In this document: piece by piece, positions 4,947-48,900 of the stretch | Numbering within the stretch: position 1 is the stretch's first letter | Layout: every line of letters begins with the position of its first letter | Source of the DNA: Eledone cirrhosa | Lineage: Eukaryota | Assembly: GCA_964016885.1 (NCBI GenBank) | Contig: OZ024763.1 | Location: 18,848,001 to 18,912,000 of the forward strand | Direction: 5' to 3' | DNA: 64,000 nucleotides | The notes under the pieces: generated by a model | What the model was told of the DNA's origin: nothing | The model's database searches: none | The model's input: only the letters and a program-made list of their open reading frames with translations | Position numbers and translations under genes: made by a program

Positions 4947-5030
4947 GTGAGAAAAATATACTGTTTGATAAACCTAATGAATTATAAAAGTGGTTTTGTG
5001 TGGCAGCGGAGGTATGAGTAGGGTTAGGGT

Positions 5031-7097
5031 TTAACCCTTTAGCATTTAAACTGGCTGTATCCGGCCAAAATTCTCTCATCTCTTTCTGTTTAACCCTCTA
5101 GCATTTAAACTGGCTGTATCCGGCCAAAATTCTCTCATCTCTTTCTGTTTAACCCTCTAGCATTTAAACTGGCTGTATCCGGCCAAAATTCTTTCATCTC
5201 TTTCTGTTTAACCCTCTAGCATTTAAACTGGCTGTATCCAGCCAAAATTCTCTCATCTCTTTCTGTTTAACCCTCTAGCATTTAAACTGGCTGTATCCGG
5301 CCAAAATTCTCTCATCTCTTTCTGTTTAACCCTCTAGCATTTAAACTGGCTGTATCCGGCCAAAATTCTCTCATCTCTTTCTGTTTAACCCTCTAGCATT
5401 TAAACTGGCTGTATCTGGCCAAAATTCTCTCATCTCTTTCTGTTTAACCCTCTAGCATTTAAACTGGCTGTATCTGGCCAAAATTCTCTCATCTCTTTCT
5501 GTTTAACCCTCTAGCATTTAAACTGGCTGTATCCAGCCAAAATTCTCTCATCTCTTTCTGTTTAACCCTCTAGCATTTAAACTGGCTGTATCCGGCCAAA
5601 ATTCTCTCATCTCTTTCTGTTTAACCCTCTAGCATTTAAACTGGCTGTATCCGGCCAAAATTCTCTCATCTCTTTCTGTTTAACCCTCTAGCATTTAAAC
5701 TGGCTGTATCCGGCCAAAATTCTCTCATCTCTTTCTGTTTAACCCTCTAGCATTTAAACTGGCTGTATCCGGCCCAAATTCTTTCATATCTTTCTGTTTA
5801 ACCCTCTAGCATTTAAACTGGCTGTATCCGGCCAAAATTCTTTCATATCTTTCTGTTTAACCCTCTAGTATTTAAACTGGCTGTATCCGGCCAAAATTTT
5901 CTCATCTCTTTCTGTTTAACCCTCTAGCATTTAAACTGGCTGTATCCGGCCAAAATTCTCTCATCTCTTTCTGTTTAACCCTCTAGCATTTAAACTGGCT
6001 GTATCCGGCCAAAATTCTTTCATATCTTTCTGTTTAACCCTCTAGCATTTAAACTGGCTGTATCCGGCCAAAATTCTCTCATCTCTTTCTGTTTAACCCT
6101 CTAGCATTTAAACTAGCTGTATCCGGCCAAAATTCTCTCATCTCTTTCTGTTTAACCCTCTAGCATTTAAACTGGCTGTATCCGGCCAAAATTCTCTCAT
6201 CTCTTTCTGTTTAACCCTCTAGCATTTAAACTGGCTGTATCCGGCCAAAATTCTCTCATCTCTTTCTGTTTAACCCTCTAGCATTTAAACTGGCTGTATC
6301 CGGCCAAAATTCTTTCATCTCTTTCTGTTTAACCCTCTAGCATTTAAACTGGCTGTATCCGGCCAAAATTCTCTCATCTCTTTCTGTTTAACCCTCTAGC
6401 ATTTAAACTGGCTGTATCCGGCCAAAATTCTCTCATCTCTTTCTGTTTAACCCTCTAGCATTTAAACTAGCTGTATCCGGCCAAAATTCTCTCATCTCTT
6501 TCTGTTTAACCCTCTAGCATTTAAACTGGCTGTATCCGGCCAAAATTCTTTCATCTCTTTCTGTTTAACCCTCTAGCATTTAAACTGGCTGTATCCGGCC
6601 AAAATTCTCTCATCTCTTTCTGTTTAACCCTCTAGCATTTAAACTGGCTGTATCCGGCCAAAATTCTCTCATCTCTTTCTGTTTAACCCTCTAGCATTTA
6701 AACTAGCTGTATCCGGCCAAAATTCTCTCATCTCTTTCTGTTTAACCCTCTAGCATTTAAACTGGCTGTATCCGGCCAAAATTCTTTCATCTCTTTCTGT
6801 TTAACCCTCTAGCATTTAAACTGGCTGTATCCGGCCAAAATTCTCTCATCTCTTTCTGTTTAACCCTCTAGCATTTAAACTAGCTGTATCCGGCCAAAAT
6901 TCTCTCATCTCTTTCTGTTTAACCCTCTAGCATTTAAACTGGCTGTATCCGGCCAAAATTCTCTCATCTCTTTCTGTTTAACCCTCTAGCATTTAAACTA
7001 GCTGTATCCGGCCAAAATTCTCTCATCTCTTTCTGTTTAACCCTCTAGCATTTAAACTAGCTGTATCCGGCCAAAATTCTCTCATCTCTTTCTGTTC
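5031..7097. repeat. 59-bp minisatellite, ~35 copies
   Basis: Unit TTAACCCTCTAGCATTTAAACTGGCTGTATCCGGCCAAAATTCTCTCATCTCTTTCTGT. Confidence 0.97.
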
Positions 7098-27939: not shown

Positions 27940-29108
27940 TCCGTGATATTCCGTGATGACGTCCCTCATGCCGGACACGTCGCCCGGTTCACCGATAATC
28001 GGTGGAGCCGCGCAGTTGCCGAGTGGTACCCGTGCGAGCGGAAACGACCACTCGGAAGGCCTCCACGAGGGTGGAGTTAGGATTTTAAGAATACGATTGG
28101 GACTACATGGATGAGGAAAGCACGATCCAGAGAGGAATGGATGGCGTGCTGTGACCAGCGGCGCTGAGTGGACGGCGTGTTGTGACCAGTGGAACTGAAT
28201 GGACGGCGTGCTGTGACCAGCGGCGCTGAGTGGAGGGCGTGCTGTGACCAGCGGCGCTGAGTGGACGGCGTGTTGTGACCAGTGGAACTGAATGGACGGC
28301 GTGCTGTGACCAGCGGCGCTGAGTGGACGGCGTGCTGTGACCAGTGGCACTGAGTGGACGGCGTGCAGTGACCAGTGGCACTGAGTGGACGGCGTGCAGT
28401 GACCAGTGACACTGAGTGGACGGCGTGCAGTGACCAGTGGCACTGAGTGGACGGCGTGCAGTGACCAGCGGCACTGAGTGGACGGCGTGCAGTGACCAGC
28501 GGCACTGAGTGGACGGCGTGCAGTGACCAGTGGCACTGAGTGGACGGCGTGCAGTGACCAGTGGTTCTGAATGGACGGCGTGCAGTGACCAGTGGCGCTG
28601 AGTGGACGGCGTGCAGTGACCAGTGGCACTGAGTGGACGGCGTGCAGTGACCAGCGGCGCTGAGTGGACGGCGTGCAGTGACCAGCGGCGCTGAGTGGAC
28701 GGCGTGCAGTGACCAGCGGCGCTGAGTGGACGGCGTGCTGTGACCAGCGGCGCTGAATGGACGGTGTGCTGTGACCAGCGGCGCTGAATGGATGGCGTGC
28801 AGTGACCAGCGGCGCTGAGTGGACGGCGTGCTGTGACCAGCGGCGCTGAATGGACGGTGTGCTGTGACCAGCGGCGCTGAATGGACGGCGTGCAGTGACC
28901 AGTGGCACTGAGTGGACGGCGTGCTGTGACCAGCGGCGCTGAGTGGACGGCGTGCAGTGACCAGTGACACTGAGTGGACGGCGTGCAGTGACCAGCGGCG
29001 CTGAATGGACGGCGTGCAGTGACCAGTGGCGCTGAATGGACGGCGTGCAGTGACCAGTGGCACTGAATGGACGCCCGACAGACTGGTCGGTCAAGGTGAT
29101 CAAGGTGA
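27940..29108 (+). mobile_element. RTE LINE 3' end containing a 31-bp array (~30 copies, 28135-29072)
   Basis: AGHVARFTDNRWSRAVAEWYP..KRPLGRPP..W..AR.REEW; TCAAGGTGA tandem tail; inserted in (TA)n. Confidence 0.85.
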
Positions 29109-32709: not shown

Positions 32710-34125
32710 AGCAGGAGTTGTGACCAGCAGATAGTATCAGCAATATACAGACCAATGGAGTCATTATTTCCTTGGTCTGATCTGATACCCAGCTTCTTTC
32801 CTATACACCACCCAGACACTTCTGCCAGGAGTTATGACTGGTAGAGATTATCAGCAATGGAGTCATTATTTCCTTGGTCTGATCTGATACCCAGTTTCTT
32901 TCCTATACACCACCCAGACACTTCTGCCAGGAGTTATGACTGGTAGAGATTATCAGCAATGGAGTCATTATTTCCTTGGTCTGCTCTGATACCCAGCTTC
33001 TTTCCTATACACCACCCAGACACTTCTGCCGGGAGTTATGACTGGCAGAGATTATCAGCAATGGAGTCATTAATTCCTTGGTCTGATCTGATACCCAGCT
33101 TCCTTCCTATACACCACCCAGACACTTCTGCCGGGAGTTATGACTGGTAGAGATTATCAGCAATGGAGTCATTAATTCCTTGGTCTGATCTGATACCCAG
33201 CTTCCTTCCTATACACCACCCAGACACTTCTGCCGGGAGTTATGACTGGTAGAGATTATCAGCAATGGAGTCATTATTTCCTTGGTCTGATCTGATACCC
33301 AGCTTCTTTCCTATACACCACCCAGGCACTTCTGCCGGGAGTTATGACTGGCAGAGATTATCAGTAATGGAGTCATTATTTCCTTGGTCTGATCTGATAC
33401 CCAGCTTCTTTCCTATACACCACCCAGACACTTCTGCCGGGAGTTATGACTGGTAGAGATTATCAGCAATGGAGTCATTATTTCCTTGGTCTGATCTGAT
33501 ACCCAGCTTCTTTCCTATACACCACCCAGACACTTCTGCCGGGAGTTATGACTGGCAGAGATTATCAGCAATGGAGTCATTAATTCCTTGGTCTGATCTG
33601 ATACCCAGCTTCCTTCCTATACACCACCCAGACACTTCTGCCGGGAGTTATGACTGGTAGAGATTATCAGCAATGGAGTCATTAATTCCTTGGTCTGATC
33701 TGATACCCAGCTTCTTTCCTATACACCACCCAGGCACTTCTGCCGGGAGTTATGACTGGCAGAGATTATCAGTAATGGAGTCATTATTTCCTTGGTCTGA
33801 TCTGATACCCAGCTTCTTTCCTATACACCACCCAGACACTTCTGCCGGGAGTTATGACTGGTAGAGATTATCAGCAATGGAGTCATTATTTCCTTGGTCC
33901 GATCTGATACCCAGCTTCTTTCCTATACACCACCCAGACACTTCTGCCGGGAGTTATGACTGGCAGAGATTATCAGCAATGGAGTCATTATTTCCTTGGT
34001 CCGATCTGATACCCAGCTTCTTTCCTATACACCACCCAGACACTTCTGCCGGGAGTTATGACTGGTAGAGATTATCAGCAATGGAGTCATTAATTCCTTG
34101 GTCTGATCTGATACCCAGCTTCTTT
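32710..34125. repeat. 102-bp minisatellite, ~14 copies, related to the SINE D 3' end
   Basis: ATGGAGTCATT every 102 bp; similar to 35092-35175 and 51937-52010. Confidence 0.92.
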
Positions 34126-34337
34126 CCTTTCTTCTATCCTCCCTCTTTCCAGCAACAAAACCTAAATTCTGTATATATTTACTTACCAAAATCTTAACAT
34201 TCAGCAAGTTAAAGTGAAGGTCATATTTCTGGGTTGACCAAACCTGTGAGAAGGAGAACTAGTGTTTTCTGTATACTCTCACTCTCACTGTAAAATTAGA
34301 AATGATAAAATAAAAAAAAAACCCATATCAGTTGTCA

Positions 34338-41626: not shown

Positions 41627-41677
<51 letters not shown>

Positions 41678-41731
41678 AACAAGTAAGACCCCGACGGCTG
41701 AGCTCAAGCCGTTTCGACGGCTAATTCTGGA

Positions 41732-42314
41732 CTGAACGTCTGCCAGAACGGGGCGATCTGCCTGGACTTGGTCGCCGCCTTCAAGTGCGTCTGCGTCGGC
41801 GGCTGGACGGGCCGCACCTGCGCCGAACGCGACCTCTGCCTCGGAAACGACTGCGGCCCGAACGCGACGTGCGTCGAGCGAGTCCGGGAGGAGAGCTACG
41901 AGTGCGTCTGCTCCCCCGGGTTGGGGGGAAGCCCCATTGCGACGTGCCCATGGTGCCGTGTGTCGTGAACGCCTGCTCAAATAACGGCTCTTGCTACCAG
42001 GAGAAGGACCCTGAGGCCAACAGCCAAGGGCGCTTCACGTGCACCTGCACGGAGGAGTGGACCGGTCCGACCCGTGAGGCACCCATGTCACTCTATCTGC
42101 AATCCACACCTCAACCACCAGATTCCAACTCGGCCGAGATCTTCCTGAGATTGGCCGAGATCTTCCGAGATCTTCCTGAGATTGGAGAAGTAGATTCCAT
42201 AGACGAGGACATTGTCAAAGAGGAACTTCGCTGTCTCTTGTGACACCAGGCCGAGGTGGACAAGAGCCACGTGGAGCTACAGCTGGAAATTAGCAAAGCT
42301 TCTATGGATGATGA
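41732..42314 (+). pseudogene. EGF-repeat membrane protein gene fragment (3 EGF-like repeats + juxtamembrane region), disrupted
   Basis: CQNGAICLDLVAAFKCVCVGGWTGRTC; CGPNATC..YECVCSPG; CSNNGSC..FTCTCTEEWTGPT(R); frameshift in the G run near 41925, Cys>Arg, TGA at 42241; no 5' acceptor. Confidence 0.8.
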
Positions 42315-42777
42315 GTGACTTTTTCATGGTTTCTGTTTTTGTTGTTGTTGTTGTTGTTGTTACTGTTGTTGTTGTTGTTTGTGGTGTGGTGGTGGTGGTT
42401 GTTGTTGTTGTTGTTGTTGTTTGTGGTGTTGTTGTTACTGTTGCTGTTGGTGGTGTTCTTATTGTTTGTGGTGTTGTTGTTGTTGTTTGTGGTGTTGTTG
42501 TTATTGTTGTTGTTGTTGTTGTTGTTGTTGTTTGTGGTGTTGTTGTTACTGTTGTTGTTGGTGGTGTTCTTATTGTTTGTGGTGTGGTTGTTGTGGTTGT
42601 TGTTGTTTGTGGTGTTGTTGTTACTGTTGTTGTTGTTACTGTTGTGGTTGTTTAGTGTTGCGGTGGTGGCGGTGGTTGTTGTTGTTACTGTTCGTGTGGT
42701 GGTGTTCGTGTTGTTGTTTGTGTTGTTGTTTGTGTTGTTGTTGGTGTTACTGTTGTTGTGGTGGTGTAGAAACAGTT

Positions 42778-43505
42778 ATTGCGGGGTCGATGGGGTAAAG
42801 TACCAGTGGTGCGCTGGGGACGATTGCTGGCCTTGTGCCCCCCAAAGGTGGAGGCAATTATTGCGGGGGTCGATAGAATAGAGTACCGGTGGTGCACTGG
42901 GGTGGTTGCTGGCCTTGTTCCCCCGGAAGTGGAGGCAATTATTATGGGGTTGATGAAATAGGGTACCAGTGGTGCACTGGAGGTGACTGCTGGTCTTGTG
43001 CCCCCTAAGGTGGAGACAGTTATTGCGGGGTCGATAAAATAGGGTGCCAGTGGTACACTGGGGTGACTGCTGCCCTTGTGCCCCCTAAGGTGGAGACAGT
43101 TATTGCGGGGTTGGTGAAATAGGGTGCCAGTGGTGCACTGGGGTGATTGCTGCCCTTGTGCGCCCTAAGGTGGAGACAGTTATTGCGGGGTCAATAAAAT
43201 AGGGTGCCAGTGGTGCACTGGGGTGATTGCTGCCCTTGTGCGCCCTAAGGTGGAGACAGTTATTGCGGGGTCAATAAAATAGGGTGCCAGTGGTACACTG
43301 GGATGATTGCTGGGCTTGTGCCCCCTAAGGTGGAGACAGTTATTGCGGGGTCGATAAAATAGGGTGTCAGTGGTACACTGGGGGGTGATTGCTGGCCTTG
43401 TGCGCCCTAAGGTGGAGACAGTTATTGCGGGGTCGATAAAATAGGGTGCCAGTGGTACACTGGAGGTGATTGCTGGCCTTGTGCCCCCTAAGGTGGAGAC
43501 AATTG
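42778..43505 (+). repeat. 80-bp tandem array (~9 units) of the SINE C 3' end, A>G hypermutated
   Basis: Aligns to 27626-27700 with ~10 A>G changes per unit. Confidence 0.88.
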
Positions 43506-43553
43506 TTATATTTTATAGTTTTTGTTGTTGTTATCTTTTCCTGCCTCCTACAG

Positions 43554-43931
43554 TGTCAACGTTGTCCGAGTCGTAGCCACGGCCACCTCGGACACCCCCG
43601 AGGAGCAGGCTAGCCTGGAAAATCTACAGCAGTCCTGGGAAGATATCTCGAGGGTCGTTCTCCAGCGCGATCTCACCTACCCTGTTTACTTCGGACACAT
43701 CAAGGACAAAAACCCAGAAAATGCACCGACAGAGAACTGGGCCAAGTCCAATCGGTACATTATCCTGTTGGTTATTATTGTCAGCTTGATTGTAGCATTC
43801 GTTGTCCTGGCGGCCATCTTGATTGTAGCATTCGTTGTCCTGGTGGCCATCTTGATTGTAGCATTCGTTGTCCTGGCAGCCATCTTGATTGTAGCATTCG
43901 TTGTCCTGGCGGCCATCTTGATTCTAAGACG
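43554..43931 (+). pseudogene. Transmembrane exon of the EGF gene fragment with a 33-bp unit repeated 4x
   Basis: cctacag| phase 2 (fits GA|gtgact at 42314); VNVVRVVATA...YIILLVIIVS(LIVAFVVLAAI)x4 LILRR |gtatgt. Confidence 0.75.
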
Positions 43932-44150
43932 GTATGTAGTGTTATATATATTATCTTAATATCTTAATATCTATGTATGTATATATGTGTATGTATGTAT
44001 ATGTCAAAGGGCAAAGGAGCTCTTAAGAGTCAATGGCCATCCAAAATCACCGGGAGAGATGACTTCTTAGCCTTTGTGAGAGATTAAACCTGGAAGATAG
44101 GATACAAAGATAGGGAGAGAGATAGAAGGGTGGAGTGATGATAGAGAGAG

Positions 44151-44290: not shown

Positions 44291-44292
<2 letters not shown>

Positions 44293-44875
44293 CAAGTATC
44301 CCAGTACAACCTGTCTGATGGTCGGGTCGTTGGTGACTAAACTGGCAACCCCACCAAGGTTTCTTGGTGAGGAGGGTGACTTTGGACATCCTGCAGGACT
44401 AAAAACAAAACATCTCAAAGGGCAAAGGAGCTCTTAAGAGTCAATGGCCATCCAAAATCACCGGGAGAGATGACCCCTTAGCCTTTGTCAAGGCAGAATT
44501 CTAGGAGAAGGAAAACTCTGATATAACACCGGCAACCCTGATGGTATCCAATGATGTTGACTTGTTCTTCTTTTTGGTAAATATCATCTTGGTTAAGAGA
44601 GTGGGACTGGCTTTGCTCAGTGCCTTTACTCACTATAAAAGCTTCACGGCACAGGCATTGCTTTATATCTGGAGATCTCTCTGCACTTGTCGTCACATGC
44701 TACCATGGGCCCAGCACTATGTGTCAATAATTGTCACAAGTGTAGTGTTTGTACCAGAGATTTCAAGTCGCTGGCTGGACTAAAAAGTCACTCGTTCAGC
44801 GCATCGGTGGGGGTTCCCTTACATGGATATAAAGTAGTGGCCGTACTCGAAAACGAGTTGGCAGCCACCACCATA
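44291..44875 (+). mobile_element. Internally deleted RTE-type element (5'UTR-like part + C2H2 3' end); partial duplicate at 44003-44080
   Basis: GAAGGAAAACTCTGATAT motif typical of RTE 5'UTRs; HKCSVCTRDFKSLAGLKSH zinc finger; ACTCG-AAAA-CGAGT stem before the tail. Confidence 0.55.
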
Positions 44876-45946: not shown

Positions 45947-48900
45947 GTTCTTCTGGTTTTATAATTTCACAAAGTTTTACCAATAGAGAGAGAGTCGGTT
46001 TCTAACATAGACACAAGACTCTCTCATTGGAATTTACTCAACATCAACTAGGTAGATATGTCTGCATGCATGCATGTGTAGATATGGATGTTATTGTATG
46101 TGTGGATGTGTATGTTTTGAGTTGTATGTGTGCATGTGTATATGCTTTGTATCTGTACATGTGTATATGCAATTATTAGATGTAAAATTTTTGGAATGTT
46201 TTACATATTTTTACTGTTCCATTAATGGATTGTACTTGTAATTTCCTAACTAGTTGTGTTTTTTCTGTTCCTGTGAAGCCTAGCTTCTCAAGATTTGTAT
46301 TGAGGCAGTTACTAACATATCCCAGTGCCCCAATAATCACAGGCATAAATCTGAAGGTGTAATCAGGGTGGAGTCTCTGCAGATTTCTCATCAGTTCTGC
46401 ATAAATATTCTCCTTTTCACTAATCTTTGATATTATATTGGCATCTGCTGGACAGCTAATTTCCACTACTGTGCATGATTTCTTCTCCCTGTCCCATATC
46501 ATAATATCTAGTCTGTTGTGCCTGCATTTTATTGGGTTTTTTACTGGAACATTCCACCAGTACTCTTTCATATTATGTACATGGATGTCTTCCACATTGT
46601 TGTAGCTTTTAATGTGTTTATTATCGGGGCTATCTTTTTTACGAACTGCATTGTACAGTGTTTTGGCCACTACATCATGCCTCATAGGTAGATAGTACCG
46701 CGATGACATCTTTGGGCAGCTGCTGATGACATGGGTGATATCCTCGATGTGAGTTCTGCAGAGTCTGCACTTGTTATCACATCTAGGTATTTTGCCTGCA
46801 TCCCTATCTCTTTTGTGAATCAGGTATTTCGTGCTAATCTCCTGTTCTTGGATTGCAAAAGCGTATCCTTCAAAGTGGGAGCCAATATAGCGGTTGTTGG
46901 TCCAAGATAGACTACTTTCCTTATCTATATTACTCTCACTCTGGAGCTTCCTGGCAACATATCCATGCATGATTTTTTGCTGATAGGCATGCAGTTTTTC
47001 ATCCATGGATTCGCTGCGATACTGCTGAGCGACATCCCTGGGTGTGAGGTTTTGATTATCACACAGGGAATATCTCTCAAGGAATTCCTTCCCAACTCTC
47101 ATGATCTTATCTGTTTCGTGCAGATAGACTTGCTCGAGAAGCGGGCTCCTACGCTTCGGGGTTCGTAGATGTTGTCGGAGAGATATGATGCGACATTCAA
47201 ATGTTGTCTGGACTGATGTTAGGCCTCTGCCTCCCTGCTTACGTTTCAAGTAAAGGCGGTCTATGTCACTGTTGATGTGGAAGTTTCCGGTGTTGTTCAG
47301 TATTTTTCGTGTTCCAACATCAACTGCTCGGATTTCGTCTATCGTCCAATTGAGTATTCCAAACGTTGGTGTTAGGACAGGCACATCAAACACATTGTGA
47401 GCCACTGTTTTGTTTTGCGCAGAGAGTTCCGATGACCAGATCTTTCTTAATCGGGTGTAGTATTCCCTGGTTACGCGTTCTTTATTACAGATACCATTAT
47501 AGGATATGTTCTCATCTATCCCCAGGTATCTGTAGCAGTCCTCATCAGATATCGGTGAAACAGTTAGACCATTGACGACAATGTTACTAGATTGGGTTGT
47601 TGTTTTTCCCCGCTTTACAGTCATGTATGAGCATTTATCTTGGCCAAACTCCATTCCTATATCCTTTGAGAACGTTGTAACCAGGTCAAGATTTTTCTTC
47701 ATCCCATCCATGTTCTTGGCATAGAGTTTCAGATCGTCCACAAAGAAGTTATGGGTTAGGTTCGTATTTCTGTCCTCCTGTGAGCCAATGATGTATCCCT
47801 CACATTTCTTGAGCAGAAAGGACAAGGGGTTTAATGACAAGATGAACAATATCACAGAGAGACTGTCCCCCTGAAATATACCTCTGCAATATTTTATTTT
47901 ATCAGTGAAAATAGAGTCCTCCCTCTCTGTCTTTAACCTTAGGATAGTAGCCCAAGAAGAAGACAGCCTCTCTATGGCTCTGACAATAATGTCTGGGACT
48001 TTAGAAAGTTGGAGGGCCTTTATCATCCAAGAGTGGGGAACAGAATCGAAAGCTTTCTTGTAGTCCAGCCAGACTGTAGTCATATTCCTCCTAAGTTGTC
48101 GCACCTCCGACATCGCAGTTTTGTTGATTAGGAGTTGTTCAGCACATCCCCAAATCCTTTTCTTTCCAGCTGCTTGTTCATCTGTGATGATGTTATTATT
48201 TTCACAGTGATCTTGGAGGAATAGGTTGAGGCAGGCTGTATACATCTTATACATCAGGTTCTGGCATGCAATGAGTCGGTAGTTTTTTGCCAAGTGGGTG
48301 TCTTTGTTCTTGGGGACCAGTAACGTTTGTGCTAATGTCAACCATTCTGGTATAAGTGTATCTCCCTTAAGAACTTGTTGGTAGAGGTCAGTAAGATACC
48401 TCCGATAGAATATTAGTTTTTTGTACAAGTAGCCGACAATCATGTCTCTTCCTGGTGTTTTCTTATCTTGGAGTTTTCCTATCACAGTCTCAAGGGTACC
48501 CTCACTTATTTCGTATGTTTTTGTTGTAGTGTAGGAGCAATAGTTCTTTCGGATTTCTCTTAGCCACACTGCATCTTGGTTGAAATTCTTCTTTTCACCC
48601 CATATTTTTCTCCAAAAGGAATCTATATCTTTCTGGGATGGGGCCTCAGTGACACTTATTATTTTTCCCTTCATATCTCTATAGACTGATGTTTAGTTTC
48701 GTCTGAATCTTTTATTAAGCATTTTTCTCTCATCTACCTTCTTTAGGTATCGGCGTTTTTCGCTAACAGCTCTCAATTCTTGTTTGAGGGTGATCAGCTT
48801 ATATTGGAGAGTTCTGGTTCTACTGTTACCAAACATCGTCTCTATTTTATTTTTCACTCTTTGTTGGTGAGGAGTGAGGTTTTTTTGTGTTTGTTTGCAT

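Follow-up and report, generated by a model that had tools for sequence, protein, structure and literature searches.

A partly spliced retrocopy in the genome of the octopus Eledone cirrhosa, with a kept intron that probably records ADAR hyper-editing of a pre-mRNA

The array of SINE-tail units at positions 42766–43505 (+ strand) of the window, by which we mean the whole 64,000-nucleotide stretch of Eledone cirrhosa DNA analysed here (C24:18848001-18912000), sits in a 5'-truncated, partly spliced retrocopy of an EGF-repeat membrane-protein gene located on C1156. The array is A>G hypermutated on the mRNA strand, and we consider it highly probable (about 0.9, judging from sequence comparison) that the retrocopy is a semi-processed pseudogene whose kept intron preserves the trace of ADAR hyper-editing on one pre-mRNA that was then reverse-transcribed into the germline. 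The original prediction held that a hyper-edited SINE transcript had been written back into DNA and then amplified. Its core, the passage of ADAR-edited RNA into DNA with later duplication of some units, is borne out by the splice junctions and by the strand and context of the A>G changes; the template, however, appears to have been a partly spliced host pre-mRNA rather than a SINE transcript, and the array was already present, unedited, in the parent intron.

TRF delimits the array as 9.0 copies of an 80-bp unit at 42772–43501. The nine units start at 42766, 42848, 42929, 43010, 43090, 43170, 43250, 43330 and 43412, and a stub extends from 43493 to ~43505. As had been proposed, the units are derived from a SINE 3' end and align with the 3' tail of a SINE copy located at 27564–27720. 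Tandem arrays of this 77- to 80-bp tail are common in the genome, and numerous unedited ones are found, among other places, on C27 and C1156, so that the proper reference for the window units is an array unit and not a single SINE; the extra run of C by which they differ from a single SINE pre-exists in unedited arrays. ARAGORN reported no tRNA genes (0), and an Rfam scan for ribozymes and structured RNAs gave 44 matches, all below the gathering score and mostly in microsatellites. The window also contains long homogeneous minisatellites at 5029–7096, 11353–13072, 28138–29073 and 32753–34128, with units of 59, 132, 31 and 102 bp, respectively.

The retrocopy extends from 41736 to at least 44077. 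When the genome was searched with its flanking sequence, C1156 was the sole other non-repeat locus, and it matched in separate pieces, all of them on the + strand of the window. The copy begins at the centre of a palindromic MITE-like repeat, whose left half occupies 41655–41738; no right half could be located next to the retrocopy. The 3' part of exon A (41736–42078, corresponding to C1156:60336-60676), which encodes EGF repeats, is 5'-truncated and frameshifted and has lost a conserved Cys. It is joined exactly to exon B (42079–42121; C1156:63062-63104), a 2385-bp GC-AG intron being gone, and exon B is joined exactly to exon C (42122–42314; C1156:65795-65954) in place of a 2690-bp GT-AG intron. 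Exon C of the copy carries a 33-bp insertion and a stop codon. Intron C-D has been kept (42315–43553; C1156:65955-70985), with its donor, (TGT)n tract, SINE-tail array, polypyrimidine tract and AG acceptor. Exon D (43554–43734; C1156:70986-71166) is again joined exactly to exon E (43735–43931; C1156:77202-77299), which encodes the transmembrane segment and contains a later 33-bp tandem duplication; the 6035-bp GT-AG intron between them is gone. The unspliced start of intron E (43932–44077) runs into a 5'-truncated high-copy retro-like repeat and marks the minimal 3' end of the retrocopy. The loss of three introns (11.1 kb) at exact exon junctions (42078/42079, 42121/42122 and 43734/43735) implies an RNA intermediate, and the splice sites and reading frame identify the strand of that RNA as +, independently of any mutations. 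The exons show no clear recoding edits, and the copy is a dead pseudogene. Parent intron A-B (C1156:60677-63061) has a GC donor, yet it was spliced in the copied RNA.

Processed and semi-processed pseudogenes are recognized by exact intron loss, 5' truncation, decay and location on a chromosome other than the parent's, and the semi-processed ones keep an intron. The window copy shares with them exact intron removal, an intron-containing parent elsewhere, truncation and coding decay. It differs from L1-type processed pseudogenes in that neither a poly(A) tail nor a target-site duplication was found at either candidate 3' end (44077 or ~44870), the longest shared words being 8 nt and unrelated to the junction. 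It also differs from known semi-processed pseudogenes, its 3' end falling inside an intron and its kept intron being apparently hyper-edited. A fuller copy of the same high-copy repeat, with a zinc-finger-like reading near its 3' end, lies at 44292–44868 (+ strand) and possibly belongs to the retrocopy. Priming on the retro-like repeat of intron E as the source of the 3' end is not supported, since 44412–44868 lacks three private alleles of the parent copy. This repeat is present in very many copies (in the parent, at C1156:77355-77813), and its 3' part reads like a C2H2 zinc finger and ends in a microsatellite, which presumably recalls the end of RTE-type LINEs. A decayed LINE-like stretch with, by eye, a reverse-transcriptase-looking reading is found at ~46270–48760 on the - strand.

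The parent encodes a single-pass membrane protein with EGF repeats. Its exons span C1156:40871-77300 (tblastn), and the closest by identity among at least 120 homologues is 'fibropellin-1' of Octopus bimaculoides (66%). Parent intron C-D contains the same (TGT)n tract, 54 complete unedited tail units and the same acceptor. The idea that the (TGT)n tract upstream of the window array is an edited (TAT)n was rejected because the parent has the same tract. Divergence between copy and parent amounts to 5–10% in the exons (7–10% over exons A–D, with many transversions) versus 2–4% at the intron ends; at several residues it is the copy, and not the parent, that matches O. bimaculoides, and there are derived residues on both sides. 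The excess in the exons may mean that another allele was the donor or that the parent evolves fast and, because of this excess and the matches to O. bimaculoides, C1156 may not be the exact donor allele. With a rate borrowed from another octopus (0.0036 per million years, as quoted in PMC13282606), the 4–9% divergence from the parent would correspond very roughly to 5–13 million years.

For the analysis of substitutions, each window unit was compared with the best-matching unit of the parent array, A/G and C/T changes being scored alike in matching. The nine units together showed A>G at 100 of 236 A (10–14 per unit), T>C at 10 of 187 T, G>A at 4 of 164 G, C>T at 3 of 133 C, and 15 transversions; a single family polymorphism accounted for seven of the ten T>C changes. 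These figures agree with the initial claim of about ten A>G changes per unit and few T>C, and with only 4/164 G>A there is no sense-strand signature of the kind seen in APOBEC-edited retroelements. Parent units, for their part, vary without bias (A>G in 2 of 15 variant alleles). When each changed site was counted once over 70 unambiguous columns, 19 of the 23 A sites had changed to G and two of the 19 T sites to C, and after removal of three sites that are variable in the SINE family the ratios were still 16/20 and 2/19 (Fisher p = 1.7e-5). The sets of edited sites in units 1–3 overlap with those of any other unit by 0.27–0.69, versus 0.75–1.0 among units 4–9, so that the claim of distinct changes in the first three units and a common pattern in the later ones also stands. 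Units 4–9 have non-A>G changes in common as well, in mosaic fashion, and are near-copies of one another, which leaves about three or four independent units. In each unit, two or three of the changed sites are shared with a dispersed SINE variant that has 322 matches in the genome.

The exons surrounding the array provide a comparison within the same copy. In units 1–4, 46 of 106 A had become G, compared with 6 of 190 A across exons and intron end (p = 5e-18), with 1/57 in exon A, 0/14 in exon B, 3/46 in exon C and 1/49 in exon D. Two microsatellite-rich pieces were excluded from this control, the end of the (TGT)n tract (A>G 3/9 A) and the repeat of intron E, including its TA tract (A>G 19/200 A, T>C 15/216). 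The array changes are confined to the mRNA strand and end at the array edges. In units 1–4, A was changed at 20 of 38 sites after T, 23 of 46 after A, 3 of 14 after C and 0 of 8 after G (5' A/T vs C/G, p = 0.0015), which gives the order U/A > C > G typical of ADAR; the sample is small because only three or four units are independent. The reported sparing of A after G was thus confirmed (0/8 in units 1–4, 1/18 in all nine units). The reported preference for a following G (TAG), on the other hand, was not evident in this small sample: in units 1–4 the changed fraction was 9/18 before G, 21/46 before A, 10/22 before C and 6/20 before T, or 37/88 for the three non-G neighbours together.

A candidate for the double-stranded RNA (dsRNA) substrate can be found in the parent gene itself. 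An inverted array of the same tail, together with a full SINE, is located at C1156:42128-42727, ~24 kb upstream of the intron array, in another intron of the parent, bracketed by parent exons at C1156:40871-41885 and from 44646 onward. The predicted duplex between the inverted and intron arrays has an energy of -360 kcal/mol over 240 nt, which makes the inverted array a possible partner; antisense SINE RNA acting in trans is an alternative one. The proposed partner is absent from the window copy and lies 24 kb from the array in the parent. Folding of the array on itself is a weak source of dsRNA, being little better (-54 kcal/mol) than that of shuffled sequences (-47 +/- 4). At C1156:6982-9120, direct and inverted tail arrays lie side by side and, judging from their arrangement, are likely a present-day editing substrate.

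The origin of the window copy can be outlined as follows. The parent holds the unedited 54-unit array in intron C-D and the inverted array ~24 kb upstream. In a nascent transcript the former would have paired with the latter, or with other antisense SINE RNA, and ADAR would have deaminated ~40% of the adenosines. Introns A-B, B-C and D-E were spliced out, whereas C-D stayed in the RNA, as did the beginning of intron E. A reverse transcriptase, presumably that of a retroelement, would have read inosine as G, and the resulting cDNA would have entered C24 in the germline or early embryo. Shared private changes suggest that unequal exchange subsequently duplicated and mixed units 4–9, and the exons decayed.

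Traces of the same kind were found elsewhere in the genome. The original prediction had named a dispersed G-rich subfamily as an adverse outcome; we found the unit pattern confined to the array. A search with it gave 16 matches, eight in the array, five at other heavily changed loci with different G patterns and three with few changes, and the best DNA matches outside the array reached at most 89%. A degenerate pattern gave 20 matches, five of them in the array, six with at least six A>G in 28 bases (by eye) and nine with two or three. A further outcome suggested as evidence to the contrary was that, read in the sense of the SINE, clusters of A>G and of T>C would be equally frequent; this test is inapplicable, as both kinds occur in the genome, which would be expected if SINEs ride in either orientation inside longer RNAs. 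Three of the six heavily changed loci belong to a retroelement that has two SINEs in inverted arrangement within its 3' end, and five copies with this pair were found (C1:4542865, C2:230592990, C3:295242441, C6:71061225 and C17:943063); the retroelement family has 2456 pattern matches, and the inverted SINE pair was present in one of 30 sampled. In the five hairpin copies the two arms have their A>G changes on the same strand (54/119 and 64/130, together 118/249), with T>C at 1/246 and no A>G in the loop (0/92), and A is changed at 56/79 sites after T, 40/88 after A, 21/56 after C and 1/24 after G (C vs G, p = 0.002). A>G is accordingly confined to sequence able to form long dsRNA, namely to the SINE-tail array alone in the window copy and to the arms of the hairpins. 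The five copies differ partly in their edited sites; some sites are common to all five, so that part of the changes may descend from one edited source. No unedited retroelement copy with the SINE pair was found.

At C2:367005875-367007440 three SINEs, the first inverted and the other two direct, carry 13, 9 and 6 A>G, respectively, on the + strand, with one unedited tail between the edited SINEs and unedited SINEs outside. No unedited source copy turned up among the best 40 candidates scored per query, so that the locus could have arisen either by an insertion whose source has since been lost or by replacement of the original in place. It is the lead for write-back in place. It seems to us an unlikely generalization that germline reverse transcription in this animal routinely draws on edited nascent host RNA and sometimes replaces the original locus with the product, ADAR thereby acting as a targeted heritable mutagen on host genes. 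At L186:5075-6091, L187:4906-5086, L188:4679-5033, L189:4926-5035, L190:4865-5142 and L191:5002-5180 there are SINEs with one-directional clusters of 7–21 changes, often with two neighbours changed on the same strand. The GTGGT pattern was tried as a marker of edited copies and rejected: it has 322 matches, and the plus-strand ones among the 30 examined were ordinary SINEs with a local variant. This dispersed variant, which has AA>GG in the tail, might itself descend from an edited source copy. Among 381 SINE alignments, 24 were dominated by A>G or T>C, two by G>A and none by C>T; the loci were picked by A>G/T>C patterns, include one duplicate and leave out the window units, so that the tally gives no estimate of frequency.

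The G bases in the assembly are supported by reads, a check called for in the original prediction. Contigs from run X1, a run of unrecorded kind that behaves like DNA and is possibly the assembly's own sample, cover 41708–41991 (5' flank junction), 42717–43024 (units 1–3), 43434–43594 and 43565–43788 (D-E junction) with 0 differences. The contig over 41962–42323, which includes two junctions, has two parent-type bases, and a separate contig differs at 17 positions in exon D before diverging from the copy, which is the behaviour expected of the parent. Depth over the copy is 4–7, like that of the parent-type contig. RAD-seq runs X21 and X22 gave no coverage of the unique parts, and run X4, from organism B, covered simple repeats only. 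An artefact, in which edited cDNA or an error-rich read was built into the chromosome, would be favoured by the possible identity of X1 with the assembly's sample and by coverage coming from that run alone. We regard it as extremely unlikely, as the frameshifts, the stop codon and the 5–10% mixed substitutions in the exons are unlike present-day cDNA, and the X1 contigs reproduce the G-rich units and the flank junction without difference.

More substantial, though still very unlikely in our judgement, is the possibility that the retrocopy was made from unedited RNA and that the array was hypermutated later as DNA, by Pol eta-type WA>WG mutagenesis, or during reverse transcription. A preference for 5' A/T is also compatible with Pol eta WA>WG, and the array alone cannot separate 5' C (3/14) from 5' G (0/8); in the hairpin copies, however, A after C is changed far more often than A after G (21/56 and 1/24). 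The confinement of the changes to the mRNA strand and their end at the SINE-derived edges (flanks 6/190 A) likewise speak against it, as do the changes in both paired arms of the hairpins on one strand with the loop spared, since polymerase errors have no reason to track RNA pairing. Moreover, 40% of A changed is far above the rates of error-prone polymerases. Gene conversion biased towards GC, or the concerted evolution of a SINE variant rich in G, would fit the homogenized units 4–9, the 322 matches of a variant that shares two of these G bases and the abundance of unedited tail arrays. It would produce T>C as often as A>G, against the 2/19 and 19/23 sites seen, and leaves the different patterns of units 1–3 and the three exact intron losses unexplained; with eight of the 16 unit-pattern matches in the array and the pattern confined to it, this possibility is largely refuted and deserves almost no credence. 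Hardly any weight attaches, too, to the idea that the hyper-edited template was a transcript of the SINE itself, which was reverse-transcribed as such and amplified into an array. The changes are indeed A>G on the SINE sense strand, but the array has no SINE head and its flanks are the flanks of the parent intron, where an unedited array stands at the same place, which refutes this origin. Editing of the partly spliced pre-mRNA accounts for the observations best.

A-to-I editing is normally treated as non-heritable. In plant organelles, C-to-U edited transcripts overwrite genes via cDNA, often with intron loss; that retroprocessing replaces the gene in place, whereas here the editing would be A-to-I, the genome is nuclear and a second copy was formed. 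ADAR-linked A-to-G hypermutation has been reviewed for RAV-1 (Felder 1994), avian leukosis virus (Hajjar and Linial 1995) and HTLV-2/STLV-3 in culture (PMC8586724). Those cases resemble ours in having clustered one-strand A>G changes made on RNA and preserved by reverse transcription; they concern viral genomes in infected cells, whereas here we have a cellular protein-coding pre-mRNA and a chromosomal record in which exon junctions prove the RNA step. APOBEC editing of LTR retrotransposons, in which cytidine deaminases cause G>A changes on cDNA, has been reported to be absent from 19 invertebrate genomes (PMC4866542, PMC2873906); the term ADAR does not occur in PMC4866542. APOBEC scars are similar in being strand-biased deaminase hypermutation with a motif in genomic copies, detected against a less-edited relative. 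They are G>A, unlike the A>G changes in this invertebrate copy of a host gene, which are tied to dsRNA. In octopus RNA, 7.85 million hyper-editing events were counted in the CNS of O. bimaculoides, and in a comparison across animals 5' G is depleted throughout, while invertebrates, octopus among them, show a weak preference for 3' G (PMC5625713). The substrate class (repeats) and the 5' motif are alike, but octopus hyper-editing was reported there in RNA reads only, whereas the marks described here are in DNA. The literature covered, mostly open-access papers, did not yield any description of a retrocopy edited by ADAR in the genome of an animal, and no precedent was found in PMC7186786, PMC3820591 and PMC4758252, the first of which leaves room for an 'unknown molecular mechanism' that raises A>G at edited sites; two 2026 papers on octopus transposons contain neither of the terms 'editing' and 'ADAR'. 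The parts, then, are familiar; what the accessible literature did not show is their union in a host gene of the nuclear genome of an animal, where splice junctions give independent proof.

The locus is an unusually clean test case, in that splice junctions, rather than the mutations themselves, establish the RNA step and its strand, the unedited parent is available in the same genome and the flanking exons serve as a built-in control. If our reading is true, ADAR hyper-editing took place in the cephalopod germline or early embryo some millions of years ago, and one nuclear splicing intermediate has been preserved with its edited intron kept and the neighbouring introns removed. Comparison of retrocopies with their parents for A>G on the mRNA strand offers a recipe for a genome-wide screen in any animal, and RNA edits would, by this route, become heritable DNA.
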